Origin: Gemmatimonadales bacterium
Lineage (GTDB): Bacteria > Gemmatimonadota > Gemmatimonadetes > Gemmatimonadales > GWC2-71-9
Length of the DNA: 64,000 nt
Assembly (NCBI GenBank): GCA_035278885.1
Contig: DATEIR010000064.1
Location: 9,351-73,350 of the forward strand
Direction of reading: 5' to 3'
This document shows positions 22,957-41,744 of the stretch, one piece after another. Under the pieces are notes generated by a model that had not been told where the DNA came from, ran no database searches, and was given only the letters and a program-made list of their open reading frames with translations. The position numbers were made by a program, and so were the translations under genes. Positions within the stretch are counted from its first letter, which is position 1. Every line of letters starts with the position of its first letter.

Positions 22957-23087
22957 ACCTCTGACCGGGGCTGGCGCACTCCGCCATGCCCCCGGAACCA
23001 TGTAGCTAAGCAACATCACCGCAACGCCTTGCGCGTTGTGTGACGTGGCTCCTAGTGGCCGGGGCGGAGAATCCGTACCGTGAGCCG

Positions 23088-24980: not shown

Positions 24981-25124
24981 CCCACCCGGCTACATTTCAC
25001 CTGCACGTTCTTGCACCTGGGCGGACGGAGGGTGTGATCCACCTCCTGGTCCGGCCCAGGGCCCCTGTGCTAGGCTTCCGGTAACAGCAGACAGCCCAGT
25101 TTCTTCCCTCTCGCGGGCGGTGCC

Positions 25125-27086
25125 TTGCGCTCCCCTCGGGTTCTCGTGGCGTACCCGATTCTGACATCGCCGAAATCGCGCTGGTGGCGCCTCGCGCCGC
25201 TCGTGCTGCTGGCCGCCTGCGGTGGCGATTTGACGCTGCCGAACGAGGGCCAGCCCGCGTCGCTGACCGTGGCCGGCGGCAACAACCAGAACGGGACGAT
25301 CGGCGAGGCGCTGATCGATCCGCTCGTGGTGCGGGTGACCGACGGCTTCGACGACCCGGTCGCCGGGGTCACCGTGGTCTGGTCCGCCGAGCCCGGCGTC
25401 TCCGTCGAGCCGGTCACGAGCGTGACGGCGGCGGATGGGTATGCCAGCACCCAGCTGATTCTGGGGTCCTCCGTCGGCACCTACGTCACCCGCGCCTCGC
25501 TGAGCGGAGTGGCCAACCCGCCGGAGCCGGTCGTATTCACCACCACCGGCGTCGCCGCTCGGCTGTCGTTCGTCACCCCGCCGCCGGCCATCGCCGCCTC
25601 GGGTGCCGCCTTCGATCCGCAGCCCGTGCTTCAGCTGCAGGATGCGTCGGGCGAGGACATCGCCCGCGGGGGCGTCGCGGTGACCGTGCAGATCTCCGAC
25701 GGCGGCGGGAGTCTATCGGGCACCACCACGGCCACCAGCGACGCACAAGGCCGGGTCGCCTTTACCGACCTGGCGATCCGCGGCTCGCCCGCGACCCGTA
25801 CCCTGATCTTCGCGGCCGATGCCTTCGCATCGGCCACCGCGGCGGTGGCTGTCGGCGTGGGCGCGCCGGCGTCGATCGAGTCCTCCGCCGGCGGTGGCGA
25901 GTCGGCCGTCGTCGGCACCGCGGTCCCGACGGCGCCAGCCGTGCTCGTCCGCGACGCCGACGGCAACCCGCTCCCCGGTATTCCGGTCTCGTTCAAGGTG
26001 ACCGCCGGCAGCGGCTCGGCCAGCGGCCGTACGCCGGTGACCGATGCGAACGGCGTGGCGACGGTGGGTGCCTGGATTCTGGGCCAGAAGGTCGGGGCCA
26101 ACACACTCCAGGCGACGCTCTCGGGCCTCGAGGTGAGCGGCAGCCCGGTGGTCTTCACCGCGACGGGCACGCCCGGCCCGGTGAGCGCGTCGAAGAGTCT
26201 GGTGGTCGCCGAGCCGGCGCAGATTGTCGCTTCGACCGGCACCAGCGCGAGCACCATCACCGTCAGCGCGCGCGATGCGTTCGACAACCCGATTCCCGGG
26301 CTGGCGGTGACGCTGTCTTCGACCGGCACCGGCAACACCCTGACCCAGCCGACCGGTCCGACCGGCAGCGACGGCACCGCATCCGGCAGCTTGAGCGCCA
26401 CCCTTCCAGGCGATCGGGTGGTGAGCGCCGTGATCGGCGGCGTGGCCGTGACCCAGACGGCGACCGTGCGGGTCTCGGCCGGTACTCCCGTCGCGGCTAA
26501 GAGCACCGCCACCGTCCCAGGGGGCACCGCCGGGCAGGTGACCACCATCCAGATTCAACTGAAGGACGCTCAGGGGAACCCGGTGGAAGGCCGCCGGGAC
26601 GCGATCGGGGTGGCGATCAGCGGGGCCAACACGGTCAACCAGGTGCCCGTCAGCGAAGAAGGTGGCGGGACCTATACGGCGAGCTACACGCCGCAGAAGT
26701 CCGGCAGCGATGCGATCAGCGTCAAGGTGCTGGGGGCGGCTCTCAGCGGCTCGCTGACCAGCATCGTGATCGCGGGGCCGCCCAGCGCGCAGACCTCGAA
26801 GGTCGACATGCCCTCGCGCGTGACCGTCATTCCCAATCAGCTCCCCGTGCACCTCACCATCACCGCGTTCGATGCGCTGGGAAACCGAGTCACCAGGGGT
26901 GGCGCCAATTTCGAGGTGCGCGTCGAGGATCAGAGCGAGGGTCCGCCGCTCGAGCTGACCGACAACCGGGACGGGACCTACAGCGCCACCTTCAATCCCG
27001 GAACCGGGGTCTTCCTGGTCCATGTCCGGCTCGATGGCGTGGAGCTGAAAGACAGCCCGTATCAGCTCATCGTGAGCTTCTTCTGA
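25125..27086 (+). CDS. Ig-like repeat lipoprotein with invasin-type Big_1 and filamin-type repeats, paralog 4
   Basis: TTG start as in the track (start uncertain). Lipobox LLAACGGDLTLPNEG. GD/GN.Q repeats, an intimin/invasin-like module (ITVSARDAFDNPIPG), and two filamin-like modules (GTYTASYTP, GTYSATFNPGTGVFLVHVRLDG). Confidence 0.75.
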   Translation: MRSPRVLVAYPILTSPKSRWWRLAPLVLLAACGGDLTLPNEGQPASLTVAGGNNQNGTIGEALIDPLVVRVTDGFDDPVAGVTVVWSAEPGVSVEPVTSVTAADGYASTQLILGSSVGTYVTRASLSGVANPPEPVVFTTTGVAARLSFVTPPPAIAASGAAFDPQPVLQLQDASGEDIARGGVAVTVQISDGGGSLSGTTTATSDAQGRVAFTDLAIRGSPATRTLIFAADAFASATAAVAVGVGAPASIESSAGGGESAVVGTAVPTAPAVLVRDADGNPLPGIPVSFKVTAGSGSASGRTPVTDANGVATVGAWILGQKVGANTLQATLSGLEVSGSPVVFTATGTPGPVSASKSLVVAEPAQIVASTGTSASTITVSARDAFDNPIPGLAVTLSSTGTGNTLTQPTGPTGSDGTASGSLSATLPGDRVVSAVIGGVAVTQTATVRVSAGTPVAAKSTATVPGGTAGQVTTIQIQLKDAQGNPVEGRRDAIGVAISGANTVNQVPVSEEGGGTYTASYTPQKSGSDAISVKVLGAALSGSLTSIVIAGPPSAQTSKVDMPSRVTVIPNQLPVHLTITAFDALGNRVTRGGANFEVRVEDQSEGPPLELTDNRDGTYSATFNPGTGVFLVHVRLDGVELKDSPYQLIVSFF

Positions 27087-27130: not shown

Positions 27131-27212
27131 GCCCTGGTGGTGAAACTGGTAGACACGCTATCTTGAGGGGGTAGTGCCGAAAGGCGTCGCGGTTCGAATC
27201 CGCGCCAGGGCA
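27131..27212 (+). tRNA. tRNA-Leu (anticodon GAG)
   Basis: Hand-folded. Acceptor GCCCTGG/CCAGGGC, D-arm GTGAAACTGGTAGACAC, anticodon stem CTATC/GGTAG with loop TTGAGGG, long variable arm, T-arm CGCGG-TTCGAAT-CCGCG, discriminator A. CCA is not encoded. Confidence 0.85.
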
Positions 27213-27224
27213 TTCGGATCACCG

Positions 27225-27296
27225 GCCACTGTAGCTCAGGGGTAGAGCTCTCGATTCGTAATCGAGCGGTCGTCGGTTCAAATCCGACCAGTGGCT
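27225..27296 (+). tRNA. tRNA-Thr (anticodon CGT)
   Basis: Hand-folded. Acceptor GCCACTG/CAGTGGC, D-arm GCTCAGGGGTAGAGC, anticodon stem CTCGA/TCGAG with loop TTCGTAA, T-arm GTCGG-TTCAAAT-CCGAC. Confidence 0.85.
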
Positions 27297-27316
27297 CTCC
27301 TTTTGTGAATAGCATC

Positions 27317-27348
27317 CGGCCCGCCATGCACGGCGGGCCGTTCTGTTT
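27317..27348 (+). terminator. Rho-independent terminator (probably bidirectional, shared with convergent mgtC-like gene)
   Basis: 9-bp GC stem CGGCCCGCC/GGCGGGCCG (27317-27325 / 27332-27340) with a 6-nt loop, followed by TTCTGTTT. Confidence 0.6.
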
Positions 27349-27802
27349 AGTGCTCGCTCTTGTCGAAGCGGGCCAGCACGTGAAGCACCACGGCCAGCAG
27401 CACGGTGACTCCCACGGCCAGTCGGAAATGCGCCAGGCCCGCGGCCATCCCCATGGCCGCCGTCGCCCAGATCGAGGCCGCGGTCGTGAGGCCCTGCACC
27501 CGGTCCCCGCTCCGGTTCACGAAGATCATCCCGCCGCCTAAGAACCCGATGCCCATCGCGACGGCCTGGACCACCCGGACCGGGTCCGAGTGCCCGGCGC
27601 CGATCTCCGCACTGGCCAGCTCCGCCAGCCCGGTGTAGAGCGCGGCCGCGATCCCCACCAGCATGTGGGTGCGAAGGCCGGCCGACTTGCCCGCGTGCTC
27701 CCGCTCCCAGCCCAGCACGCCGGCCAGCAGGCCCGCCACGAGCACTCGGCCCAGGATGTCGAAGTCGGGATGCACGGCACGCCTCCGGGGGGAGGAGTGC
27801 AA
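27347..27802 (-). CDS. mgtC: MgtC/SapB family membrane protein
   Basis: LLAGVLGWEREHAGKSAGLRTHMLVG and GIGFLGGGMIF are signature MgtC motifs. The start could be a few codons downstream. Confidence 0.75.
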   Translation of the reverse strand: MHSSPRRRAVHPDFDILGRVLVAGLLAGVLGWEREHAGKSAGLRTHMLVGIAAALYTGLAELASAEIGAGHSDPVRVVQAVAMGIGFLGGGMIFVNRSGDRVQGLTTAASIWATAAMGMAAGLAHFRLAVGVTVLLAVVLHVLARFDKSEH

Positions 27803-29117: not shown

Positions 29118-30668
29118 TCAGCCGGGGATGCGGAGGCGCATCCCCGCGCGGAGCGTGTTGTCCTGGTGGATCGCGTTCGCCCGGCAAAGGGCGGGGAGCG
29201 ACACCCGATAGCGGCGGGCGATGGCGGTGAGCGTCTCGCCCCGGCGAACCTTGTGGGTGCGCGAGGCCGCGTGATGGGGCTGCGCGCCGGCGGCCTGCAT
29301 CGCGAGCGCCGACGGGATGGCGACGGTGGGTATCACCAGCCGGGTGCCGGCGGCGGGCCGGGTGGTGCCCTTGAGCTTTGGATTGGCGGACCGCAGGTCC
29401 GCGGTCGAGAGCCGGTAGCGCGCCGCGATGGTGGTGAGCCGCTCCCGTTTCCGAACCACGTGGGTCAGGAAGTGCACCCGCTGGGAGGCCGGCATGGCGG
29501 CATAGGCGCGGGTCACGTCCTCGCCGGTGCCGACCGGCACCCGGACGACGGAGGAGGTCCGCGGCGGCGTGGCCAGCCGCAGGTATTGTGGGTTGAGCGC
29601 CCGGATGTCGCTCAGCGAAGTGCCGGCGAGCCGGGCCACGACATCGAGGCCGGTGGCGTCGGAGACCAGGAGCGAGTCGTAGCCGAAGGGAGCGCCGGCC
29701 GCCGGCGTGAAGCCGTAGCGTGCGGGCTGCTTGGCGATGAGCGCGGCCGCGATCAGCTTGGGCACGTAGTCCCGGGTCTCGGCCGCGAGCAGGTCCGATG
29801 CCGCCAGCCGGAAGAACGCGGCATCGCTGGTGACGCCGGGAAGCTCATCGGCGGGCTCGGCGGTCTCCCCGCTGTCCGCGCTGTCGGCGGCATCGGCCAG
29901 CGACTCGGCGGCCGAGTCCGCGGCCTCGTCGGCGAGGGTGTCGGCGCTCTCCTCGTCCGCCGCGGCGGCGGTGTCCACCGCCGGCTCGGTCCACTGCAGC
30001 TTGCCGAGGCTTCGGGAGACCTTACCGGCGCCGGCGTTGTAGGCAGCGGCCGCGAGATAGAGCGACCCGAAGCGCTCCCGCAGATCCCGGAGGTGCCGGG
30101 CGGCCGCGTCGGTGGCCTTCACCGGATCCCGGCGCTCGTCCACCCAGGTATCCACCCGCAGTCCGTAGCCCCGACCGGTCCCCCGCATGAACTGCCACAT
30201 CCCCACGGCCCGGGAGCGGCTCACCGCTTCGCTGGAGTAGCCGCTCTCGATGAGCGCCAGGTACCCCAGGTCGCCGGGAAGCCCTTCGGCTTCGAACCGC
30301 CGACGGATCATCGGCTCGAAGTGCGACCCGCGCTCGAGAAAGACCGCCATCCGCTCCCGGGCCGGGCCCTGGAAGTAGCGCAGGTAGTACTGCACCCGGG
30401 GATGTTCGGCATAGGTCCGGACGTCGATGTCCCAGCGCACTCCGCTGGCGTCGAACGCCGGGACCAGCACGTCGTCCGGAGAGCCGACCGCGAGGTCCTC
30501 CAGGACTTCGGCGTCGGCGGCGCCGATCTGCTGCGAGGGCAGCGGCTCGACCACCGGCGGGACCAGGGAATCGCCGAACGCGGCCATCGGCGTGGTTGGA
30601 GCGGGAGGAATCCCTGGGGCGCACGCTCCAAGAGCGGCGACTCCGATGGATAGCAGCAGTCGCTTCAT
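29118..30668 (-). CDS. mltD: Lytic murein transglycosylase (MltD-like) lipoprotein with C-terminal LysM repeats
   Basis: Lipobox VAALGAC. SLT domain motifs LALIESGYS, GMWQFM and AAYNAG. Three LysM-like segments (e.g. HVVRKRERLTTIAARY, HKVRRGETLTAIARRY). Confidence 0.85.
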   Translation of the reverse strand: MKRLLLSIGVAALGACAPGIPPAPTTPMAAFGDSLVPPVVEPLPSQQIGAADAEVLEDLAVGSPDDVLVPAFDASGVRWDIDVRTYAEHPRVQYYLRYFQGPARERMAVFLERGSHFEPMIRRRFEAEGLPGDLGYLALIESGYSSEAVSRSRAVGMWQFMRGTGRGYGLRVDTWVDERRDPVKATDAAARHLRDLRERFGSLYLAAAAYNAGAGKVSRSLGKLQWTEPAVDTAAAADEESADTLADEAADSAAESLADAADSADSGETAEPADELPGVTSDAAFFRLAASDLLAAETRDYVPKLIAAALIAKQPARYGFTPAAGAPFGYDSLLVSDATGLDVVARLAGTSLSDIRALNPQYLRLATPPRTSSVVRVPVGTGEDVTRAYAAMPASQRVHFLTHVVRKRERLTTIAARYRLSTADLRSANPKLKGTTRPAAGTRLVIPTVAIPSALAMQAAGAQPHHAASRTHKVRRGETLTAIARRYRVSLPALCRANAIHQDNTLRAGMRLRIPG

Positions 30669-30720: not shown

Positions 30721-30755
30721 CAAACGCACAAAGCGGGCCGCCGGGCGGCCCGCTT
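30721..30755 (-). terminator. Rho-independent terminator downstream of the 30884..33382 gene
   Basis: 10-bp stem AAGCGGGCCG/CGGCCCGCTT (30731-30740 / 30746-30755). On the minus strand it is followed by TGTGCGTTTG. Confidence 0.55.
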
Positions 30756-30883
30756 CAACGTGTTGCGTGACAGTGACTTGGCTTAGGGTTGGAAGTGCTG
30801 CTCAGCCCGGCCTCGGGCAAAACCCGGGTGGCGCCCGCAAATCGCCCGCGCGATGCTCGCTCAAAGGGCGCCGAGATTCGGCA

Positions 30884-33382
30884 TCAGTAGGGCAGTCCGG
30901 TGGTCAGATACCAGCGCGTTCCTTCCTGTCCATGGGCCGCGGTGAGCGACAGGGCGTAGCGTGCATCGAAGAAGGCCAGCCAGAAGCCGCCACCCGCCGA
31001 CGCATGCACACGGGTGGAGGTGGTACCGTCGGCCCAGACCCGCCCGGCGTCGGCCAGGGCGAGGATGCCGATCTGGGTCGGCACCGTATGGCGGAACACC
31101 CACCCGATCGCCTGCCGGACTTCCGCTCCGCCATAGACCGACGCGTCGCCCGCGAACCGCTGATAGAGGTAACCCCGGAGCGTGTGCTGGCCGCCGAGGA
31201 AGGCGGCTTCGTCATAGGGGAACGCTCCCCATGCGTGCCTCCCGCCGAGGCGGAGCGCCAGCAGCGGCCCGCCCGCGCCGGCGAGAGGCAGGTGGAGCGA
31301 CGCGTCGGCGTGCAGGTCGCCGAAGCTGAGGTCGGCACTCCACACCGGCGCGAACGCCGACGCGCCGACCACGACCCTGGCCTTCGGCTCGGGCCGGGTG
31401 GTGTCGGGCGACTCGGCCGAGAGCTCCGCCGCCGCGCCCAGCCTTCCGAAACCGGTGGCGCCCAGCGGCCGCTCGGCGCCTACCACCTGGGCAGGATCCA
31501 GACTGGTCGTCGTGTAGCGCAGCACCGGCCCGACCGTGAGCCGGGCATGCTCCGTCAAGCTGTACTCGTACGCCGGCGCCAGGCTGAACTGCCATTGATG
31601 GACGTCGTAATCCGACGTTTGGATCGGAGCCGGCGTCTCGTTCCCCAGGCCGGCAAAGCGGACGACCTCCAGCTCGGATGCGCCCAGGTGCAGCAGGAAC
31701 CGGCTCTGCCGGTCGGCGCGCGGGAGGTCGGCGTCGAAGGCGAACCGGAATCCTTCGGCTCCCGTGGCGTATTCGCCGCCCAGCCGCAGCTTGGAGCCGT
31801 AGGGCTCCTTCCGGAACGCGTAGTCGGTCCGGGTGCCGGCGGCCCCGAGCACGATGCCGAGGTCGGGATCGTAGCCGAACCTGGGACCCACGCCCTTGGC
31901 GCTGCCCCAATCGCGGGGAGGAATGCCGGCCTCGATGGGATCCTCGATGTTGAGGTCGCGAGGAATCTCCGGGTCGTGCACGTCGACTCCGGGCCGGTCG
32001 GCGCCGGCCAGCTCGGCAGCGGGGTCGCGGATCACGCGCAGCCGGGTTCCGCCGCGATCGGGACCGGTGACCGTGAGGTGGTCGCCTCCACCGCCGAGAT
32101 AGAGGCGGACCTCGCCGGTTTCGTCGGGGAGGAAGCGCCGCTCGAAGACCGGGGGGCTGCCGGGCTCGTTCCGCAGGGTCAGGGTGAGGCCCCCGTCGCC
32201 CTCGCGCTTCGCGTCGGCCCATTCGGCCTCTCCGCTGGCCACGACGTCCACATCGGTCGCCAGCTGCCGATAGTAGGCGCGGGCCTGCGCCGGCAGGGCG
32301 TCGCGCCGCGCGATGAGGGCCGTGCGAGTGGGGCCGACCCAGTCGCCCTTGAAGGACGCGGGCAGGCCGGCCAGGGCGCTGTCGATCGCGGCGTCGCTGA
32401 TCCGGACCACCAGGTCCGCGGCAACGGAGTCGAAATCGGCCCAGCTCAGTCCGCTGAGCAGGCGACGGTCGAGATCCCTTCCGTTCCAGGTCAGGCCCAG
32501 GAGCTTGGGGTAGGTGGGCTCGAAGATCACCAGCTTGGGATGAGCCTGGCGGGCGAGCTTGAGGAACAGCCCGTCGTATCGGGCGAACGCCTGGTCCCGG
32601 TCCCGCGGGATCGGCCGCCAGAGGGTGCGTCCGTTCCGCTCGACGGCAGCCCACTTCCATTGGTCGCGATGCCGGTCCCAGTCGCCCATGAGCTGGTCCA
32701 TGAGCCTGGCGCGCAGGAAGGCCCGTGCATCCACCTGATGCCTCGATCCGGCGTTCAGGCTGTCGATCAGCTCGTCGCTGTCCGCCACCGCGTCCGCACC
32801 CGCGAAGCCGTCCTTGGGCTTTTCTTCGATGTAACCCAACAGTCCCGCGAACTCCTTGCGGTACTCGCCCAGTGCCGGATCGTCGGGCATCACCACCAGC
32901 GTCGGCTCGACATGGAGCACGCGGGCCGAGCGCAGGAGCCGCGCGGCAACCAGGGGTCCGCCGGGGTAGCCGGCGCTGATGGCGTCCTGCACCAGGCGGT
33001 GCGCCACCGTCTCCCGGAAGATCGGCGGCACCGCGGGGGTCGGATCCTTGTCCAGCGAGCGGAAGACGTAGGTGTTCCCGTCCTCGCCCTTCATGTCCAG
33101 GGAGCGGGTCTGCTGCCCGCCGCCGAGCTCATCCGGCGTGAGTCCCCCCGCGTAGCCGTGCAGATCGAGAACCTTCGCCGTGACCGGCTCGGTCCAGAGG
33201 TCCCGATAGTGCGCGCCGAAGAGCGTCCGGTGCAGGCTCCCCCGCTGGTACTGAGGCCCCGGGACCACCCGGCGGCTTTCGTCGGTGGGCTCCGACGTGG
33301 TGCCGACGGCGGCCCCGTATTCCTGCGGCGCGGCCGCCTGGGGCGCCCCGGCGAGAACGAAGAGGAGCACCAGCGGCTTCAT
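30884..33382 (-). CDS. Secreted protein: novel N-terminal domain (kinase-like DRH/DxD motif) fused to Omp85/BamA-type beta-barrel, paralog A
   Basis: In-frame ATG at 33382 is preceded by GGAGGAGGGG. Signal peptide is MKPLVLLFVLAGAPQAAA. C-terminal third has FLGGQHTLRGY (Omp85 loop-6-like), ALADAGRVW and a terminal ...TTGLPY. The N-terminal ~450 aa is shared with 36693..39281. Confidence 0.75.
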   Translation of the reverse strand: MKPLVLLFVLAGAPQAAAPQEYGAAVGTTSEPTDESRRVVPGPQYQRGSLHRTLFGAHYRDLWTEPVTAKVLDLHGYAGGLTPDELGGGQQTRSLDMKGEDGNTYVFRSLDKDPTPAVPPIFRETVAHRLVQDAISAGYPGGPLVAARLLRSARVLHVEPTLVVMPDDPALGEYRKEFAGLLGYIEEKPKDGFAGADAVADSDELIDSLNAGSRHQVDARAFLRARLMDQLMGDWDRHRDQWKWAAVERNGRTLWRPIPRDRDQAFARYDGLFLKLARQAHPKLVIFEPTYPKLLGLTWNGRDLDRRLLSGLSWADFDSVAADLVVRISDAAIDSALAGLPASFKGDWVGPTRTALIARRDALPAQARAYYRQLATDVDVVASGEAEWADAKREGDGGLTLTLRNEPGSPPVFERRFLPDETGEVRLYLGGGGDHLTVTGPDRGGTRLRVIRDPAAELAGADRPGVDVHDPEIPRDLNIEDPIEAGIPPRDWGSAKGVGPRFGYDPDLGIVLGAAGTRTDYAFRKEPYGSKLRLGGEYATGAEGFRFAFDADLPRADRQSRFLLHLGASELEVVRFAGLGNETPAPIQTSDYDVHQWQFSLAPAYEYSLTEHARLTVGPVLRYTTTSLDPAQVVGAERPLGATGFGRLGAAAELSAESPDTTRPEPKARVVVGASAFAPVWSADLSFGDLHADASLHLPLAGAGGPLLALRLGGRHAWGAFPYDEAAFLGGQHTLRGYLYQRFAGDASVYGGAEVRQAIGWVFRHTVPTQIGILALADAGRVWADGTTSTRVHASAGGGFWLAFFDARYALSLTAAHGQEGTRWYLTTGLPY

Positions 33383-34584
33383 ATCCCCTCCTCCTGCGTC
33401 AGCCAGGCCGAGTAGACCTCGGCGCTCTCCCCCTTGGCGCGGGTTCCTTCGCGAACCACCGTGGTGACCGAAAGCCGCACCCTGCCGTCCCGGGTGACGT
33501 CCAGGCGCATGAACCCGGCTGCCTCGCGCGCAAAGAGGGTTCCATCGATGTGGCGCACCAGGCTCGAGTGGCCCAGGATCCCGGCGCCGCTCACCAGCTG
33601 ATAGCCGGCGCGGGTGATGCGGGGCGTCCCCCCGCGGATCACCTGCAGGTTGTGGTCGTGGCCCGAGACCATCGCCAGCGGCGGGTGGTCCTTGAACGCC
33701 TGCTCGAACGCGTCGCGCATCAGCGCGTACTTGTGCCCCGAGATGTCCTGGTTGGAGATCCCGGACTGGCGGGCGAGCGGATACATCGAGCCGATGATCG
33801 GGAGCGGCAGCCACATCCACGACTGGAAGTTGCGGAGCGGGAAGATGTGGTCGCTCCAGGTGAAGAAGCCGCCGTGCTCGCCGCCCGAGCGCAGGGGGTG
33901 GTGGGTGAGCACCAGCGCATGCCGGTCGCCGGCGTCGCGAAGCGCGCCCCGCAGGGAATCGGTCACTTCCTGGTAGGTGTGGGTGGGACACGGGGCGTCG
34001 GGGCCGTACGGCTTCACGTCGTTGTGGACCCACCACTCGCTGTCGAGCACGATCAACCGGAGGTGAGTTCCCAGGTCCACCACTTCGGGGCCGGGACAGC
34101 CGCCTTTGGGCAGCAGCCGGACGTCCTTGGCGCCGAACTTGGCGACCACGGTGTCCATCCGCCGGATCGAGTTCCAGCCGTCGCGGCCCTGCCGGTCCCA
34201 GTCGTGATTCCCCGGGATCAGCAGTCCCTGCGCCTTGCCTCGCCGGATCGCGACCACCTGGGCCCGGATCTTCCGCTCGGCGTCGTCCCGGGTCGGCGAT
34301 CCGAGCGGGGGCACGCCCCGCGGGTAGACGTTGTCGCCCAGAAAGACGACGTACTGCTTCACCGCGCGGAGGGAATCCGACTGCTTGGCCAGGTCCCGAA
34401 GCACCGGCTCGCCGTCGTACGCCTTGCTGCCCGCGTCGCCGATGAGAAACAGGGAGACTTCGATGCTGTCCATCGGTGCGACCGGCGCCGGCGCCGCCGT
34501 GGCGGGCTCGAGCGCGCGGGTACACCCTCCGACGAGGATCGCCGCGGCCAGCGCGGCCCAGCCCGGGCTACGGACGCCAGGCAT
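33379..34584 (-). CDS. Calcineurin-like metallophosphoesterase lipoprotein
   Basis: Lipobox AILVGGC. Motifs LIGDAG, FLGDNVY, PGNHDW, LTHHP and SGHDHNLQ. The stop overlaps the downstream start (ATGA). Confidence 0.8.
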   Translation of the reverse strand: MPGVRSPGWAALAAAILVGGCTRALEPATAAPAPVAPMDSIEVSLFLIGDAGSKAYDGEPVLRDLAKQSDSLRAVKQYVVFLGDNVYPRGVPPLGSPTRDDAERKIRAQVVAIRRGKAQGLLIPGNHDWDRQGRDGWNSIRRMDTVVAKFGAKDVRLLPKGGCPGPEVVDLGTHLRLIVLDSEWWVHNDVKPYGPDAPCPTHTYQEVTDSLRGALRDAGDRHALVLTHHPLRSGGEHGGFFTWSDHIFPLRNFQSWMWLPLPIIGSMYPLARQSGISNQDISGHKYALMRDAFEQAFKDHPPLAMVSGHDHNLQVIRGGTPRITRAGYQLVSGAGILGHSSLVRHIDGTLFAREAAGFMRLDVTRDGRVRLSVTTVVREGTRAKGESAEVYSAWLTQEEGI

Positions 34585-35413
34585 AGGTCGTGAGCGTAGC
34601 GTCCTTGCCCGCGCCCTCGTCGCTGATCAGCAGCGAGAGGTCCGGGGCGATCGCGATGCCTTCCGGCTGCCGGTGACGCTTGGGATCGAGCTTGCCGCCA
34701 CCGAGCACCCGGCCCGCCGCGTCGACCTCGGCATACGCCTGCTCCGGGCCGGCCAGCAGCAGGTAGGTCCCGGTTCGGGGATGGCGGACCAGCGCGGACC
34801 CATGGAAGCCCTTGGTGCCCGTGGCCCGCTCGAGATCGTGCTGGGAGATGACCATTCGCGGCTCGGGCTCGAGCTGCCAGGTCTCGCTGTCGACGCCCAG
34901 CACGATGACCGCGTCGTGCCAGCGGCGGCTCACCACGTTCTTGCACAGGAGCAGGAAGGCGCGGGTCGCCTCGTCCCAGGCGAGTCCCTCGACCTCACAG
35001 GCGCCTTGCAGCTCCTCCGCCACGTCGGCGCTGGAGACCACCGCGCCATCGGCCCCTTCGCTCCCAGCCACGATCTCGCCGCTGCTGGTCACCAGGAACA
35101 CCCGGCCGTTCACCACCTGGATGTCCTCGAAGTCGCCCTTGAGCACGTGCCCCGCCCGGCCCAGCCCGAACCGCTTGACCACCTTGCCCGAGCGCGGGTC
35201 GAGCTCCCACACCAGCGCGTGCTCGTCGCCATGGCCGAGCAGGCGTCCGTCGGCGGTGAAGGCGATGCCGGAGATCTCCCGGAGCTTCTTGTCCAGGTGC
35301 ACCTCCGACGTGGGCTTGCCGGCCAGGTCGTAGTGGGGCAGGGCGGGCTCGCGGCCGCGGGCGGCGGCCATGAGCAGCGCGGCGCCGCCGACCACCGACG
35401 CGCCGAGCCTCAC
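34568..35413 (-). CDS. SdiA-regulated/YjiK-like beta-propeller protein with N-terminal signal/anchor
   Basis: In-frame GTG at 35413 (GTGA overlap with the upstream stop) gives VRLGASVVGGAALLMAAA. Motifs REISGIAFT, CEVEGLAWD and PEGIAIAP are typical of SdiA-regulated domain proteins. Confidence 0.6.
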   Translation of the reverse strand: MRLGASVVGGAALLMAAARGREPALPHYDLAGKPTSEVHLDKKLREISGIAFTADGRLLGHGDEHALVWELDPRSGKVVKRFGLGRAGHVLKGDFEDIQVVNGRVFLVTSSGEIVAGSEGADGAVVSSADVAEELQGACEVEGLAWDEATRAFLLLCKNVVSRRWHDAVIVLGVDSETWQLEPEPRMVISQHDLERATGTKGFHGSALVRHPRTGTYLLLAGPEQAYAEVDAAGRVLGGGKLDPKRHRQPEGIAIAPDLSLLISDEGAGKDATLTTYAWRP

Positions 35414-36468
35414 GGGGCGGTCCCCTGGACCGCCGCCCCGGCGTCGCTGGGGGAATACTCGGTCAGCTGGGGTCCGAGCCGCTCGCGCAGCGCGCCGAGC
35501 AGGGAGTCGGGCCCGCAGCGCTTCTTGAGCCGGACCTGGTAGGTGAGCGTGGGCAGGCCATCCACGCCGGGGTCGTCGGACTCGAGGCCCCAGCGCTTGG
35601 TGCAGTCCTCCAGCACGGCTTCGACGGCGCGTCGGGTCTCGACGTCGGCGGCGGCGTGGACTCGCAGGATGCCCTCCCGTTTCGAAGGTGGCGGGGGCGG
35701 CGCGTCCGCGCCCTCCGTGAGCGGCTTCACCTCTTCCGGCCGGAACCACTCCGCCATCGGCGCGGGATGGCGATCGGTCGCCTTCCCCAGGAGCGTCCGC
35801 AGCACGCCGCCCTTGGCCGGCTGCTCGCCCAGGGCGATGTCCGCGATCACCGGCTGACTGGTCTGCCACTTCCACAGCGCGACGACCACCAGGTTGTAGA
35901 GGCCGGAGAGCGCCGCCGAGGCTTCCAGCGCGCCCACGCCGGCGCCGAGGCCGACCGCGATGGCGATGAAGACGTACATCGCGTCCTTGGTGTCATCCAG
36001 CGAATTGCGGAAGCGCACCAGGCCCGCGATGCCGGCAAGGCTGAAGGCGATCGCCAGGCTGTCCTGCACGATCACCAGAATGGCCGCGACCGCGATAGGC
36101 AGGAGGGTGATGGTGGTGACCACCGAGTGGTCCACCTTGCGGCGCTCGCGCGTGGCCACATAGGCCCAGGCGATGGGCAGCATGAGCAGCAGCGCGCCGG
36201 CCATGGCGACGACCGCGACCAGCCAGCCGCGGCCGCCCCACGCCGCACTCTGCACCGCGCTGCCGAGGGACTTCTCACCTACGGCGGAAAGACGGTCCTC
36301 GAGCGTGGGCGGGCCGCTGAAGCCCCGGGTGATCCGGGCCAGGGCGACCACGGCGGCGATGACCGCGAGCTGAAACAACGCGAGCCACGCCAGGCGCGGC
36401 TTGGGAACGTTCCCCCCGGGGGGCAACTCGGAAGCGTGGCTTGCGCCCATGATGCGCGATCCCTCCAA
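35410..36468 (-). CDS. DUF4956-type polytopic membrane protein with C-terminal soluble domain
   Basis: Several TM segments and GLVRFRNSLDDTKDAMYVFIAIAVGLGAG, which I recognise as the DUF4956 core. The start may be the ATG at 36450 (MGASH...). Confidence 0.6.
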   Translation of the reverse strand: MEGSRIMGASHASELPPGGNVPKPRLAWLALFQLAVIAAVVALARITRGFSGPPTLEDRLSAVGEKSLGSAVQSAAWGGRGWLVAVVAMAGALLLMLPIAWAYVATRERRKVDHSVVTTITLLPIAVAAILVIVQDSLAIAFSLAGIAGLVRFRNSLDDTKDAMYVFIAIAVGLGAGVGALEASAALSGLYNLVVVALWKWQTSQPVIADIALGEQPAKGGVLRTLLGKATDRHPAPMAEWFRPEEVKPLTEGADAPPPPPSKREGILRVHAAADVETRRAVEAVLEDCTKRWGLESDDPGVDGLPTLTYQVRLKKRCGPDSLLGALRERLGPQLTEYSPSDAGAAVQGTAP

Positions 36469-36692
36469 AGAGGTCAGGTAACGCCCACCCCGTCAGCGAC
36501 CGCCGATTGCAGCATAGAAACGAGGCCAATCTACTGCCCCCCTGAGGATTACACTGTGGCAATTGTCACGAGACTGACGCGGGTAGTCGCACGCCGGAGG
36601 GGAGGTGTGGCCCAGCCGCGTCCCACAGTGGAACATAGGCTTGACGCCCGACCGCTCATATCTTTGGGCCGGAAATCTCTCGTGGAGTCGTC

Positions 36693-39281
36693 ATGTCGAA
36701 AGCCCGCCGGGCACCGGTCCGACGGCCGGCTCTTTTTGGCCCCGCGCTCGTGCTCACGTTCGCGGGGTTCCCAGCTGGGCTTGCCGCGCAGGTGCCCGGA
36801 CAGGATTCGCTGGTGCCCGGCAGCACCGTCCGCATGGCGGCCGGTCCGGAGTACGAGGCGGGCCTCGTGCACCGCTTCTTCTTCGGCAGCCGATACCGGA
36901 AGCTGTGGGCGACGCCGATCGAGGTTCCGGTCCTCGACCTGGAGACCTTCGCCGGCGGACTGCGACCCACGCGCAAAGGCGGCGGCGAGCAGACCCGATC
37001 GCTCCGCCTCCAGGGTGCCGACGGCAAGGAGTACAGCTTCCGGTCGGTGAACAAGGACCCCTCGGGCGCCCTCCCGCCCGAGCTGCGTGGGACCGCGGCC
37101 GCCGACGTCGTGCGCGATCAGACCAGCGCCGGCCACCCGGCCGGGGCGCTCGTCGTCGCGCCCATCCTCCGAGCCACCGGCGTTCTCCACGTCGAGCCGC
37201 AGCTCGTCGTCATGCCCCGTGATTCGTCCAGGCTGGGGCAGTTCACGGCCGAGTTCGGCGGGATGCTCGGGACCATCGAGGAACGGCCCGAGGAGGCCGA
37301 CGATGCCGCGGGCTTCGCCGGCGCGGCCGACATTATCAGCACCGACAAGCTGCTGGAGGAGCTGCGGGAGAGTCCCAGCGACCGGGTGGATGCGCGAGCC
37401 TATCTCGTCGCGCGCCTGCAGGACATCTATCTCGGCGACTGGGACCGGCACCGGGATCAGTGGCGCTGGGCCCGCTTCGGCGAGGAGAAGCCCCGCCGCT
37501 GGGTGCCGATTCCCCGTGACCGCGACCAGGCGCTCGCGCGCTACGACGGTTTTCTCCTGAGCTTCGCGCGCGCCAGCACACCGCAGCTGGTGCGCTTCGG
37601 CGCGGACTACGCCGGGATGCTGGGCCAGACCTGGAATGGCCGGGATATCGACCGTTGGTTTCTCACCGGGCTGGAGCGGCCGGTCTGGGATTCGATCGCC
37701 CTGGCGCTCCAGGCCAAGATCACCGACTCGGTCATCGCGGCGGCGGTGGCCGCGATGCCGCCGGCCTACCAGCCGCTGGATTCAGCCTGGCTGGGACACG
37801 CCCTGCGCCAGCGCCGCGACCATCTGCCCGACGCGGCCGAGGCGTTCTATCGCCACCTCGCCGGCGAGGTGGACGTCGAGGCGACCGACAAGGACGAGCT
37901 GATCACCGTGACCCGGCACGACGGCCGCTACACCTCGATCGCGGTGGCGCGGGTGGAGAAGGACGGCACCGTGGACCCGCCCTACTTCGAGCGGCGCTTC
38001 GATCATCAGGACACCAAGGAGGTCCGGCTTCATCTCGCGGAAGGGAATGATCGGGTGGTGGTAGAGGGGCCGGGCGGAGGCGGAATTCGGATCCGGGTGC
38101 TGGCCGACGGTGGCGCCGATTCGCTGGCCGACTCGTCCCGCGGAGGACGGCTGAAGCTGTACGCCCCGGACGGCAATGACGGGTTGGCGGCCGGCACCGA
38201 CGTAGCGGTCGACCGCTCCACCTACGAGCCTCGCTCGGCCGCCGTGCGCAACTGGGGCGACCGCTGGCTGAGCCAGACCTGGCTGGCCTACGGCCCGGAT
38301 CTCGGCGCGTTCTTCGGCGCCGGGGTGGCATTCACCCAGTACGGCTTCCACCGGGACCCGTTCGCCCATCGCTCGCGGATCCGGGTGGGATACTCCACCG
38401 GCGCGGCCACGGGACGTGCCGACTATGCCGGGGTGTGGTACCGGGAGAACTCCCGCGCGCACTTCAACCTGCTGGCCAGGGCATCGGGCATCGAAGTGCT
38501 CCGGTTTCACGGATTCGGCAACGAGATCAGCGCGGTGGAGGACAACGAGTTCTACCGGGTGAAGGAGACGGATATCAGTCTCTCCCCCTCCTACACCTTC
38601 CCGATCGCTTCCCGGATCGAGTTCTCGGTGGGGCCGCTGCTCAAGTTCACCGAGACCGACCTGGACGAAGATCGCTTCATCGCCGAGGCCCGGCCGTACG
38701 GCGCCGGGAACTTCGGCCGCTTCGGCCTCCTCGGTCGGCTGGAATACGAAGGACGCGATCGGCCGATCGCGGCGACGCGAGGAGCCTTCGTCCGAATCCA
38801 GGGCGGGTACTACCCCAGCATGCTCGACGTGGAGGAGGCCTTCGGCGAGGTCCACGCCATCGCGACGAGCTACTTCAGCGCCCCGTCGATGCCGCTCGAG
38901 CCCACGCTTTCCTTCCGCGCGGGAGGCAAGCGGGTCTGGGGCCGGTATCCCTACCAGGAGGCGGCGTACATCGGCGACATCTCCACCGTGCGGCTGGGCC
39001 GAGACAACCGCTACGGCGGGGATGCTTCTCTCTACGCCGGCTCCGAGCTCCGCCTGTTCCTCACCGAGTTCTACTTCCTCGCCCCCGGCGACCTCGGCGT
39101 GTTCGGTCTGGCGGATGTGGGACGGGTGTACCTCGAGGGCGAGGAGTCGGACGTATGGCACGGCGCGGCCGGCGGCGGCATCTGGCTCTCGCTGCTCGAC
39201 CGCGCCAACACCATGAGCCTCGCCGTCGCGAAGAGCGAGGAGAGGACCGGGGTGTATCTGACGGTGGGATTCGGGTTCTAG
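36693..39281 (+). CDS. Secreted protein: novel N-terminal domain (kinase-like DRH/DxD motif) fused to Omp85-type beta-barrel, paralog B
   Basis: Signal peptide ...LVLTFAGFPAGLAAQ. It shares FRSVNKDP, VLHVEPQLVVMP, LGDWDRHRDQWRWA and PIPRDRDQALARYDG with paralog A. C-terminal GLADVGRVY and a terminal ...LTVGFGF. Confidence 0.75.
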   Translation: MSKARRAPVRRPALFGPALVLTFAGFPAGLAAQVPGQDSLVPGSTVRMAAGPEYEAGLVHRFFFGSRYRKLWATPIEVPVLDLETFAGGLRPTRKGGGEQTRSLRLQGADGKEYSFRSVNKDPSGALPPELRGTAAADVVRDQTSAGHPAGALVVAPILRATGVLHVEPQLVVMPRDSSRLGQFTAEFGGMLGTIEERPEEADDAAGFAGAADIISTDKLLEELRESPSDRVDARAYLVARLQDIYLGDWDRHRDQWRWARFGEEKPRRWVPIPRDRDQALARYDGFLLSFARASTPQLVRFGADYAGMLGQTWNGRDIDRWFLTGLERPVWDSIALALQAKITDSVIAAAVAAMPPAYQPLDSAWLGHALRQRRDHLPDAAEAFYRHLAGEVDVEATDKDELITVTRHDGRYTSIAVARVEKDGTVDPPYFERRFDHQDTKEVRLHLAEGNDRVVVEGPGGGGIRIRVLADGGADSLADSSRGGRLKLYAPDGNDGLAAGTDVAVDRSTYEPRSAAVRNWGDRWLSQTWLAYGPDLGAFFGAGVAFTQYGFHRDPFAHRSRIRVGYSTGAATGRADYAGVWYRENSRAHFNLLARASGIEVLRFHGFGNEISAVEDNEFYRVKETDISLSPSYTFPIASRIEFSVGPLLKFTETDLDEDRFIAEARPYGAGNFGRFGLLGRLEYEGRDRPIAATRGAFVRIQGGYYPSMLDVEEAFGEVHAIATSYFSAPSMPLEPTLSFRAGGKRVWGRYPYQEAAYIGDISTVRLGRDNRYGGDASLYAGSELRLFLTEFYFLAPGDLGVFGLADVGRVYLEGEESDVWHGAAGGGIWLSLLDRANTMSLAVAKSEERTGVYLTVGFGF

Positions 39282-40339: not shown

Positions 40340-40632
40340 GGCCTCCTGCCACTGGTCCGATAGCACCACGCCGGAATCGAGCAATCGGGTTCGCAACAAA
40401 CGGCGTTGGTGCGTTTAAACGTGCCTTCAATCTAATAGTCGAACGGGGTTGGTCAATACCGGTTAACTGTAACGCCGACAGTCACTTACAATTGTCGATT
40501 CGGTAAATTTTCGGGGAGCGATGTTTTGAAGGTGTTCGGATGCTGCTCCTGCCCGCCCACGGCCCAAAAACTCGAGGGGGGCCGGCCAATGCCAGCCCCC
40601 CTCAGGAGTGCGCAGGTGCTTGGGAGTGTCGA

Positions 40633-40812
40633 CTACTCATCGCGTTCGTTCTTGTAGAGCCAGTACTCGGGGCCAGCGAGGTTCTCAGGCCAATCGTCGA
40701 GGTGGAGATCCCCGCGCCACGCCTCGGGTTCGGCGGGCTCCCAATCCGCATCCGGCGTGTCCCAAGGGAGGTCTCCATCGCCTTCCCAAGGGCGCCCATC
40801 CTGTAGGCTCAT
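40633..40812 (-). CDS. Hypothetical small acidic Trp-rich protein (59 aa)
   Basis: AAGGAG lies 6 nt upstream of the in-frame ATG at 40812. Product: [59 protein letters not shown]. Confidence 0.4.
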
Positions 40813-41083
40813 ACCACGCTCCTTCGTGTTCCGGGGGGCACCTGCGCCGGCCTCTCGGAGCAAATGCCGGGCCGACTGCTGGGGTTCCATCCAGGCTTTC
40901 TATGGTCTGGCGAGCTGCCCGTCCCCCGCCTCACAACTATCGGCTAAGGGCGGGCTTTCGCGTGGTGGGCAGGGTCACGGGGCGGAGGATCGACTGGTCA
41001 CGCACCCTTGTGAACGGAAGTACGAGCAGAATGAGAGGGTCGAGCCGCCTGGCGGCGTCCCTACCGCAGGCCCGGGCTGTGGA

Positions 41084-41089
41084 CTACAA
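41084..41089 (+). promoter_or_regulatory. Possible -10 element (TACAAT) for tRNA-Pro
   Basis: Near-consensus TACAAT lies 16 nt upstream of the tRNA 5' end. No convincing -35 element. Confidence 0.3.
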
Positions 41090-41105
41090 TTCCCCTCCGC
41101 CGGAA

Positions 41106-41179
41106 CGGGACGTGGCGCAGTCCGGTAGCGCACTGCAATGGGGTTGCAGGGGTCGCGGGTTCAAATCCCGCCGTCCCGA
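41106..41179 (+). tRNA. tRNA-Pro (anticodon GGG)
   Basis: Hand-folded. Acceptor CGGGACG/CGTCCCG, D-arm GCGCAGTCCGGTAGCGC, anticodon stem CTGCA/TGCAG with loop ATGGGGT, T-arm GCGGG-TTCAAAT-CCCGC, discriminator A. Confidence 0.85.
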
Positions 41180-41189
41180 TGAGCACAAG

Positions 41190-41213
41190 AGGCCGACCTC
41201 TCGAGGTCGGCCT
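41190..41213 (+). terminator. Hairpin downstream of tRNA-Pro (putative terminator)
   Basis: GGCCGACC/GGTCGGCC stem (41191-41198 / 41205-41212) followed by a weak T-run (TTCTCAT). Confidence 0.4.
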
Positions 41214-41270
41214 TCTCATAGACGTCCGGACACCGTTCCCCGATCTCGATCCGTCCACTACCGAGGCTCT

Positions 41271-41744
41271 ATGCGCTCTGCCGCGCTCGCGTCCGCCGTT
41301 CTGCTTCTCGCTGCCTGCCGACCCGACGCACCCGCCGGTGGTGCGGCCGTCGGGGGAGCCTCCGCCGGCGGCTTCGCTGCGGAGCTGGCTGTCGACACCA
41401 CGGCCCTTACCCGGATGCCGTCTGGTCTGCGCTACCAGGATGTCAGCGTCGGATCGGGGGAAGAGGCGACCGCGGGCCGCACCGCCGTCGTGCACTACAC
41501 CGGCTGGCTGCCGGATGGGAAGAAGTTCGACAGCAGCCGGGACCGGGGTGAGCCCTTCTCGTTTCCGCTCGGCGCGGGCCAGGTCATCGCGGGTTGGGAT
41601 CAGGGTGTGGCGGGAATGAAGGTGGGTGGTCGCCGCAAGCTGGTCATCCCGCCCGAGCTGGGCTACGGCGCGGCGGGCGCGCCGCCCGACATCCCGCCCA
41701 ACGCCACCCTCGTCTTCGACGTGGAGCTGCTCGGGGTTCAGTAG
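41271..41744 (+). CDS. FKBP-type peptidyl-prolyl cis-trans isomerase lipoprotein
   Basis: In-frame ATG at 41271. Lipobox LLLAAC. Motifs [55 protein letters not shown]. Confidence 0.85.

Follow-up and report, generated by a model that had tools for sequence, protein, structure and literature searches.

The locus and its genes

This report concerns five genes at positions 30884-39281 of a 64,000-nucleotide (nt) window of contig DATEIR010000064.1 from a Gemmatimonadales bacterium. Two of the genes encode paralogous proteins, P1 and P5, in which a kinase-like domain is joined to an outer-membrane barrel of the Omp85 type. The window is the whole stretch of DNA that was analysed and coordinates throughout refer to it, position 1 being its first letter. 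The window has a G+C content of about 70%, and is most closely related to metagenome-assembled genomes of Gemmatimonadales. At this locus lies a conserved envelope module, made up of the Omp85 barrel with its protein-kinase-like (PKL) domain, a metallophosphoesterase (MPE), a propeller and an inner-membrane protein, and the module is often linked to the polyphosphate kinase gene PPK1. The features of the locus are as follows.

30721-30757, minus strand: intrinsic-terminator-like hairpin closing the four-gene operon, a 12-bp GC-rich stem followed by UUUGUGCGUUUG
30884-33382, minus strand: P1, fusion protein of 832 amino acids (aa) with a signal peptide, a kinase-like domain, a beta linker and an Omp85 barrel
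about 32243-33265 and about 30887-31894, minus strand: kinase-like part and barrel of P1, respectively, placed by alignment to P5
33379-34584, minus strand: MPE, purple-acid-phosphatase-type metallophosphoesterase lipoprotein, 401 aa
34568-35413, minus strand: SdiA-regulated/YjiK-type beta-propeller with an N-terminal signal or anchor, 281 aa
35410-36468, minus strand: DUF4956 polytopic inner-membrane protein, 352 aa, with an alternative ATG start at 36450
36469-36692, no strand: divergent control region of 224 nt between the DUF4956 gene and P5
36693-39281, plus strand: P5, fusion paralog of 862 aa (pLDDT of the full-length AlphaFold2 model 86.8), with homologs in the thousands
36825-37862, plus strand: predicted atypical protein-kinase-like domain of P5, residues 45-390 (AlphaFold2, Foldseek, conserved residues)
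37866-38222, plus strand: all-beta linker domain of P5, residues 392-510, not POTRA (strands only by DSSP)
38259-39266, plus strand: 16-stranded Omp85 barrel of P5, residues 523-858 (DSSP, Foldseek)

The five open reading frames that a preliminary description of this DNA had listed were found at the same coordinates, as a four-gene operon on the minus strand and the divergent P5 gene. The chaining of the four genes by overlaps, which that description had proposed, can be read from the sequence at all three junctions: a GTGA overlap at 35413-35410, a 17-nt overlap at 34584-34568 and, between MPE and P1, an ATGA overlap at 33382-33379 with GGAGGAGGGG just before it. The hairpin terminator that had been placed at the end of the operon was confirmed as well, with a minimum free energy of -33.9 kcal/mol (z = -2.8; 0 of 200 shuffles fold equally well) and a U-rich tail. 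P1 and P5 both carry signal peptides, as read from their sequences, and they are 40% identical over their full length (E = 1e-177), in agreement with the description of the 862-aa protein as a divergently transcribed paralog of the 832-aa fusion. Orthologs of P1 are 83% identical and lie in the same operon.

The database gene call for P5 (P0001, 822 aa) begins 40 codons downstream, omits 36693-36812 and therefore lacks the signal peptide, whereas the homologs of P5 span all 862 aa. The P5 ortholog of an 83-90% identical relative (L003:4113-6691; L numbers denote the loci of relatives) is called as two genes of 483 aa and 376 aa. This split is a frameshift, a pseudogene or an assembly error.

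A kinase-like domain at the N-terminus of the fusion proteins

Residues 1-450 of the fusions have no match in Pfam or NCBIfam at E <= 10, and a phmmer search of P5 against the PDB sequences gave a chance match only. Residues 34-520 of P5 were modelled with AlphaFold2 on the basis of 67 homologs that are mostly from Gemmatimonadales; the model has a pLDDT of 92.7, and together with Foldseek it points to a bilobal kinase fold in the N-terminal domain. When the model was compared with the PDB, the eight best matches (E <= 0.01) were all kinases and kinases predominate in the remaining list. The best match is CtkA from H. pylori (3akk; E = 1.3e-4, probability 1.00), with a modest, target-normalised TM-score of 0.49-0.55. 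Further kinases in the list are HipA, PI4KIIα, Legionella kinases, the bacterial Ser/Thr kinase 7vkc and COQ8A, with Fam20 (Fam20C), RIO and WaaP lower down. In the viral library BFVD, Foldseek matched the model to a phage protein with a PI3/4K domain (E = 4e-7) and to a CotH kinase, likewise from a phage (E = 2.8e-4).

Candidate kinase elements occur in the canonical order. Strand beta1, the Gly-rich loop GGGxQT and beta2 are followed by beta3 with the basic residues R117 and then K121. Next come the acidic D142 in alphaC and, after alphaE, the motif G-D-W-D251-R-H-x-D-Q256, and the last element consists of two strands and then P-I-P-x-D276-R-D278, in which D-x-D would take the DFG position. 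Conservation was followed in two sets, the 67 sequences that are mostly from Gemmatimonadales and 47 sequences from several phyla. R117, K121, D142, D249, D251, R252, D276, R277 and D278 are invariant in the 47 sequences; G97, G98, T101, H253 and Q256 are invariant in the larger set and at least 90% conserved in the 47. The corresponding motifs of P1 are GGGQQT, GDWDRHRDQW and IPRDRDQAF, with LRGY as the L6 motif of its barrel. The CotH/PI-kinase-like motif that had been noticed at the outset is supported: DRHxDQ and DRD are invariant or nearly so, and the predicted fold is kinase-like. The structure prediction and Foldseek search that had been recommended for this domain returned a protein-kinase-like fold, with HipA/CtkA, PI4KIIα and CotH-type kinases as the nearest. 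As modelled, the N-terminal domain is a new and very divergent member of the PKL fold. It appears not to belong to the HipA, PI3/4K or CotH families, because its sequence-level links to the named kinase families are not significant.

The linker and the Omp85 barrel

DSSP assigns only strands to the P5 linker (residues 392-510), which has no beta-alpha-alpha-beta-beta unit of the POTRA type; at the sequence level a designed Ig-like protein was the sole match, by profile and weak (E = 0.01). No Pfam match to POTRA was obtained for P1 or P5, and the region in front of the barrel consists of the kinase-like domain and the all-beta linker. The earlier statement that the N-terminal ~450 aa are not POTRA repeats therefore agrees with Pfam, the AlphaFold2 model and DSSP.

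The statement that the C-terminal part is an Omp85-type barrel is supported too. P5 residues 523-858 form 16 long strands in the model, and Foldseek matches them to the BamA and TamA barrels with E ~1e-10 and a TM-score of up to 0.76 (against 4n74). The two window fusions score 22.2 and 18.5 bits with Pfam Omp85 (PF01103), below the cut-off of 24, and many homologs carry PF01103. P1 has weak Omp85 and ShlB matches and a match to NF047779 (1.7e-15). The L6 motif is TLRGY in P1 and TVRLG in P5, where the Gly is replaced. R767 in L6, D808 and G810 are invariant in the 67 sequences and coincide with the Omp85 lid-lock positions, the latter two being the beta13 Asp/Gly. The 'noNterm' Omp85 proteins of Leptospira were considered as relatives and rejected as a different group because they are genuinely without an N-terminal domain.

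These features bear on two explanations of the fusions. One is that they are ordinary assembly factors of the BamA/TamA type with divergent periplasmic domains, and that the neighbouring genes are unrelated. The barrel fold and the lid-lock residues are typical of Omp85 and some relatives are annotated 'BamA/TamA family', but the fusions have no POTRA domain and their N-terminal domain has a kinase fold in the model. The partner genes are moreover conserved and even fused to the barrel (see below), and TamB-like and BamD-like genes do not recur nearby. The explanation is left with a negligible probability and is regarded as excluded.

The other explanation is a type-V-like autotransporter, in which the barrel would export the kinase-like domain to the surface or the medium as a CtkA-like effector. 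CtkA, the best PDB match, is a secreted kinase of H. pylori, and the order of the parts, with a passenger at the N-terminus and an Omp85 barrel at the C-terminus, is like that of the type Vd model as first proposed. However, neither a patatin nor a POTRA domain, the criteria for type Vd, was found in the fusions, and the 'passenger' of PlpD, a patatin-Omp85 protein of type Vd, itself stays in the periplasm (PMC11116518). Among the partners are a lipoprotein and a periplasmic protein with an anchor, in Bacteroidota the MPE is part of the same chain, and the hosts live freely in soil, sediment and water. Export of the kinase-like domain is therefore very improbable.

The partner proteins

The partner proteins were identified much as the preliminary description had them, as a calcineurin-type metallophosphoesterase lipoprotein, a YjiK/SdiA-regulated-like propeller and a DUF4956-type polytopic membrane protein. 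The MPE scores 25.7 bits with PF00149 (cut-off 21.5) and has the lipobox LVGGC. Its translation keeps the blocks GDAG, GDNVY, GNHD, VLTH and GHDH, which we take to be the purple-acid-phosphatase (PAP) set GDXG, GDXXY, GNH(D/E), VXXH and GHXH. The MPE is probably active as an enzyme, either a phosphomonoesterase or an anhydride hydrolase.

The propeller has a short hydrophobic N-terminus and falls just under the cut-off of PF06977 (SdiA-regulated; 19.4 bits, E = 6e-4, cut-off 21), with weak Phytase-like and PQQ_2 matches in addition. A protein of L001 that is annotated with PF06977 shares 40% identity with it (E = 1.7e-45), and PF06977 is recorded for the equivalent genes in L001, L086, L088 and L089. 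The propeller probably belongs to the YjiK/SdiA-regulated family. The DUF4956 protein scores 45.9 bits with PF16316 (cut-off 30.6) and has at least four strong predicted transmembrane segments. A phmmer search of these three proteins against the PDB gave nothing useful; the propeller weakly matches the propeller of a glutaminyl cyclase.

The fused form in Bacteroidota

The MPE and the fusion protein also occur as one polypeptide. P0282 (1,335 aa) has Metallophos at residues 69-266, a kinase-like region at 468-900 and Omp85 at 1084-1297 in a single chain. A search with it gave at least 120 matches, annotated 'metallophosphoesterase' or 'BamA/TamA family outer membrane protein'; among those listed, all but the four closest relatives are about 1,180-1,280 aa long with 32-36% identity, usually at 93-99% coverage. 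The named sources are Bacteroidota, namely Larkinella, Chitinophaga, Catalinimonas, Arcicella, Rapidithrix, Nafulsella and Desertivirga, and more than 100 proteins of this phylum combine the three parts in a single polypeptide. In the Larkinella protein P0386, residues 26-343 are 39% identical to the window MPE (E = 2e-72) and residues 384-1210 are 34% identical to P5 (E = 1e-132), including GDWDRHDDQW and PIPRDRDQAF. Since P0386 aligns to both proteins, the MPE and fusion genes of the window are a split form of this triple fusion. The presence of both in one chain in Bacteroidota is strong evidence, at the level of sequence, that the MPE and the fusion would act together in the same compartment.

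The triple-fusion genes of Larkinella and Chitinophaga follow genes for a 281-aa SdiA-regulated propeller and for an HD+PycTM membrane protein. The 281-aa propeller ortholog lies immediately upstream of the Bacteroidota fusions, and PPK1 is also adjacent in Chitinophaga. The shared propeller, inner-membrane protein and PPK1 indicate that the module is conserved from Bacteroidota to Gemmatimonadota, with either the HD-PycTM or the DUF4956 protein as the inner-membrane part.

A 'Metallo' subfamily of Omp85 proteins (PF00149 + Omp85) was catalogued by Heinz and Lithgow in 2014 with no function assigned (PMC4104836). In that work PF00149 was read as a metalloprotease and the kinase-like region was not mentioned. 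The shared architecture of PF00149 and Omp85 suggests that the fused form in Bacteroidota corresponds to this subfamily; the window fusions are without PF00149 and the homologous MPE is the adjacent gene. On this reading the barrel family in its fused form has been on record since 2014, and the object is not entirely new in kind. The system had been called undescribed, which does not hold for the fused form, widespread in Bacteroidota and with the architecture of the 2014 subfamily, but appears to hold for the kinase-like domain and the module. No publication was found on a kinase-fold Omp85 protein or on a link between this family and polyphosphate, in a search that did not cover all journals, and a literature search for SdiA-regulated proteins with PPK or a metallophosphoesterase found no description of a system. 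What appears to be new is the split form with two paralogs, the recognition that the domain is kinase-like, and the conserved module with its linkage to PPK1.

Conservation of the neighbourhood and the link to polyphosphate kinase

With proteins clustered at 50% identity, a profile of the two N-terminal domains matches the representatives of 3,334 clusters; for 1,640 of these E < 1e-30, and most of the matching proteins are about 850 aa long. At least 594 stretches in the GTDB contigs, taken as one genome per species, encode a relative. The best 80 of these come from Gemmatimonadota, Ignavibacteria, Chlorobium limicola and other Chlorobiaceae, Bacteroidota, KSB1, Latescibacterota and Acidobacteriota, and one of the bins is labelled Armatimonadota. 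Partners within 10 kb were counted in the best 80 of the at least 594 species-level loci by tblastn with the window proteins and the PPK1 of a relative; many of the contigs are short.

The MPE was found in 26 of the 80 loci, the propeller in 27, DUF4956 in 25 and PPK1 in 26, and at least one of these four is present in 56. A Hanks-type Ser/Thr kinase, often fused to DUF4956, was found in 27 loci, the HD+PycTM membrane protein in 12, a second fusion paralog in 10, a SixA-like phosphatase in 8 and PAP2 in 7. The gene set is conserved far beyond chance. The commonest order is DUF4956, propeller, MPE and fusion on one strand, as in the window. In Ignavibacteria the order is fusion, propeller, MPE, fusion, and the layout with two flanking paralogs recurs (L046, L049, L054). 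The co-occurrence of MPE, propeller and DUF4956 that had been proposed as a test is thus seen across phyla. Three outcomes had been named as telling against a new system, namely a known family for the N-terminal domain, the lack of co-occurrence, and ordinary BamA/TamA proteins with POTRA domains; none of the three was observed.

The PPK1 gene adjoins the fusion gene in Gemmatimonadota, Ignavibacteria, KSB1 and Chitinophaga, either directly upstream, sometimes overlapping it (L004), or directly downstream. By our own estimate, a single-copy gene would be found within 10 kb by chance in about 0.4 of the 80 loci (20 kb of a genome of ~4 Mb). In some Gemmatimonadota the PPK1 has an N-terminal extension of ~370 aa and lies directly downstream of the fusion gene (L014:12490-15633, L080:8560-11733). 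The extension has a weak match to CYTH (triphosphate tunnel) just below the cut-off in L014 (E = 1.9e-4) and no Pfam match in L080. A VTC-type (TTM) polymerase was not seen beside the fusion genes, where PPK1 stands in those 26 loci, and the window has neither. The claim that the canonical partners are missing is therefore correct for the window, but not for the relatives in which PPK1 lies directly beside the fusion gene.

Several other genes were observed near the fusions of relatives. DUF4956 is fused to a Hanks-type Ser/Thr kinase in a 940-aa protein (L004:3022-5844) that is encoded a few kb from PPK1 and the fusion gene, and similar proteins occur in L007, L008, L009 and L016. The HD+PycTM protein, which is of the Pycsar-effector transmembrane type, takes the place of DUF4956 in Bacteroidota and Ignavibacteria (L088:5870-7072, L089:5701-7002), and in these groups a SixA-like His_Phos_1 gene often adjoins PPK1. 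In a subclade of Gemmatimonadales (L011, L017, L023, L026, L061) the MPE and fusion genes stand between a gene for a TLC (ATP/ADP-translocase-like) MFS transporter, directly upstream, and one for an MFS+HEAT-repeat protein, directly downstream, with all of them on the same strand and in the same operon. The TLC transporter may hint at the movement of nucleotides across the inner membrane for the module, instead of polyphosphate (polyP). In the window itself, tblastn found no TLC, HD-PycTM, SixA or PAP2 gene.

The phosphatase genes of this neighbourhood bear on two further explanations. One is phosphorus scavenging, in which the PAP-type MPE, anchored at the outer membrane, and the phytase-like propeller would hydrolyse external or periplasmic organophosphate or polyP. 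The kinase-like domain would then be a non-catalytic ligand-binding module, and PPK1 would store the phosphate that is gained. The intact PAP motifs of the MPE, the weak Phytase-like match of the propeller, the PPK1, SixA-like and PAP2 genes near the fusions of relatives, and the soil and sediment habitats of the hosts are all consistent with such a role. However, the catalytic-type PKL residues are invariant across phyla, which is more conservation than a scaffold needs. Omp85 barrels are closed by the lid-lock, and the lid-lock residues are conserved here. Pst, PhoB and SusCD-type genes, like the TamB-like and BamD-like genes mentioned above, do not recur among the neighbours in the relatives' loci, and a study of one member of the Bacteroidota, an omics paper on phosphate starvation in Flavobacterium, makes no mention of such a protein. 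Scavenging as a joint explanation of all these components is unlikely.

The other explanation is remodelling of outer-membrane lipid or lipopolysaccharide (LPS), in which the domain, as a lipid- or sugar-kinase-like one, and the phosphatase would both be anchored at the inner leaflet of the outer membrane and would tune how far lipid A, inositol lipids or the core of the LPS are phosphorylated, a function that would parallel the lipid-related role proposed for PlpD. PI4KIIα and WaaP are among the structural matches, PAP2 genes occur in the 7 loci counted above and L090 adjoins lpxD, lpxC/fabZ and lpxA. The lpx adjacency is seen in one locus only, however, by TM-score the domain is no closer to lipid kinases than to protein kinases, and the recurrent linkage to PPK1 and to DUF4956 or HD-PycTM is left unexplained. 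Lipid remodelling is somewhat less likely still than scavenging. No rival explains the full linked gene set as well as the function considered next.

Proposed function of the module

The function we infer for the module is polyP-linked phosphoryl transfer or turnover in the envelope, and a probability of about 0.4 is given to it. The PKL domain and the phosphatase would lie in the periplasm, beneath the barrel, a placement made by analogy with PlpD, a dimer-forming protein whose enzymatic domain is periplasmic (PMC11116518). The PKL domain and the MPE would form a pair for phosphotransfer and dephosphorylation, or for polyP processing, that acts on an envelope substrate or on polyP itself. PolyP made by PPK1 at the inner membrane would be the phosphoryl donor or the cargo, and the DUF4956 or HD-PycTM protein would possibly hand it outward. 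By way of background, the endopolyphosphatases Ppn1 and Ppn2 of the yeast vacuole belong to the metallophosphoesterases, polyP made by VTC is translocated across the membrane in a coupled process, and Gemmatimonas aurantiaca was obtained as an organism that accumulates polyphosphate.

A number of points weigh against polyP-linked phosphoryl transfer. The kinase assignment rests on a modelled fold and the order of motifs. In a profile search against the PDB, CtkA was found with E = 0.58, which is not usable as evidence, and hhalign of the 47-sequence profile against E. coli HipA was not significant (probability 0.1, E = 0.46), even though the only region it aligned, again without significance, places GDWDRHRDQW on the HipA catalytic loop GATDGHAKNF. 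CotH (PF08757) has no match among the window proteins, and just two of the 47 kinase domains match it, at E >= 0.011. Gln stands in the place of the Asn that usually binds Mg, and Arg may stand for the Lys of beta3; the domain may therefore work by a chemistry other than that of ATP-dependent kinases, or may serve for ligand binding only. The kinase and phosphatase activities of the module are putative throughout, and the periplasmic location, rather than one at the surface, is presumed by analogy. To our knowledge the periplasm does not contain ATP, and we know of no PKL-fold enzyme that uses polyP. There is no PPK1 in the 64-kb window by tblastn. Many of the 80 loci are phylogenetically related, so that the counts overstate the number of independent events, and 24 of the 80 show none of the partners, partly owing to short contigs.

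A more specific version of polyP-linked transfer can be drawn up as a trans-envelope phosphorylation system powered by polyP. PPK1 would make the polyP, the DUF4956 or HD-PycTM protein would provide its passage, the Omp85-tethered atypical kinase would draw on it, in a periplasm free of ATP, to phosphorylate an envelope component and the PAP-type phosphatase would reverse or trim the modification, while the two paralogs would form heterodimers. This version is doubtful in its full detail. If it were true, it would contain the first polyP-driven kinase-fold enzyme and give Omp85 barrels a new role.

Omp85 proteins are usually seen as POTRA-bearing protein insertases or translocases, and here a very large and widespread branch has a predicted kinase-like domain, coupled through an operon or a fusion to an acid-phosphatase-type enzyme. 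The recurrent linkage to PPK1 and DUF4956 suggests a route to an extracytoplasmic use of polyphosphate, which bears on an open question of polyP biology. The host phyla are prominent in soils and in phosphorus-removing sludge, and cultured and sequenced hosts exist (Chitinophaga, Larkinella and Chlorobium limicola), which makes the proposal directly testable.

The control region and the surrounding window

The divergent control region contains a CRP/FNR-like palindrome, TGTGG-CAATTG-TCACG, at 36555-36570, which is the sole match to TGTG-N7-TCACG in the window. It is kept in the equivalent intergenic regions of relatives, as TGTGc-N6-TCACG in L001 and L005 and in identical form in L003, and it may have a regulatory role. 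A scan for sigma-70 promoters gave no match in the region. Genes for a cyclase (PF00211) or for cNMP-binding proteins adjoin the module in some relatives (L088, L085).

An MgtC-like gene (27347-27802) and a gene for a lytic transglycosylase with SLT and LysM domains (29118-30668) were considered as parts of the module and rejected because their synteny is seen only in close Gemmatimonadales relatives (one of the 80 loci). The window has tRNA genes at 27131-27297 and 41106-41179. The tRNA-Leu(gag) and tRNA-Thr(cgt) genes are upstream of the MgtC-like gene, and tRNA-Pro(ggg) lies within a long spurious open reading frame at 40608-41744, the 3' part of which, judged by synteny with relatives, is probably the gene of an FKBP-type protein. 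Judged likewise by synteny, with L003 and L086, the stretch 19498-27086 encodes several large secreted proteins in a row that have Ig repeats of the Big_1/invasin type.

Comparison with known systems

The fusions have in common with BamA and TamA the 16-strand barrel, the L6 Arg and the beta13 Asp/Gly positions. They differ in being without POTRA domains and without BAM or TamB partners nearby, and in having a barrel that falls under the Pfam threshold.

The predicted bilobal PKL fold is common to the fusions and the atypical kinases (HipA/CtkA, PI3/PI4-kinases and CotH), as are a putative DxHxx(N/Q) catalytic loop after alphaE and D-x-D in the presumed DFG position, and the Gly-rich loop of HipA likewise contains GxQ. 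Unlike these kinases, the fusions have a Gln in place of the metal-binding Asn and no significant profile similarity, and they are Sec-exported and tethered to an outer-membrane barrel.

The yeast VTC complex with Ppn1 and Ppn2 provides a conceptual analogy, in that polyP synthesis is coupled to transfer across a membrane and polyphosphatases of the metallophosphoesterase family are located on the far side. Homology to the system described here is seen only at the level of the superfamily, and no VTC domain was found.

A closer parallel in gene content is known from Gram-positive bacteria. The preliminary description had stated that DUF4956 is linked with a polyphosphate polymerase and CotH, and this is documented for Gram-positive pel loci, where DUF4956, cotH and a polyphosphate polymerase form an accessory set (PMC7112168). 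Both systems follow the same logic, combining an atypical kinase of the secreted type, an enzyme that synthesises polyP and DUF4956. The kinase of the pel set is from another family, and here PPK1, with or without the CYTH-like extension, replaces the VTC-like polymerase. The diderm version adds the outer-membrane barrel, the MPE and the propeller.

PlpD and the other patatin-Omp85 proteins of type Vd resemble the fusions in bearing an N-terminal enzymatic domain on a 16-strand barrel. PlpD has a patatin lipase and a POTRA domain, whereas the fusions have the kinase-like fold and no POTRA, and there is no sequence relationship outside the barrel. PlpD nevertheless offers a model for the topology of the fusions and for a possible pairing of the two paralogs.

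The nearest system is the 'Metallo' subfamily, to which the fused proteins of Bacteroidota would correspond. The window differs in having two paralogs of the barrel and a gene of its own for the MPE lipoprotein. The sequence alignments indicate that the Bacteroidota proteins, about 1,210-1,270 aa long, are homologous to the window proteins and not merely analogous, and they share with the module the upstream propeller and, in Chitinophaga, PPK1.

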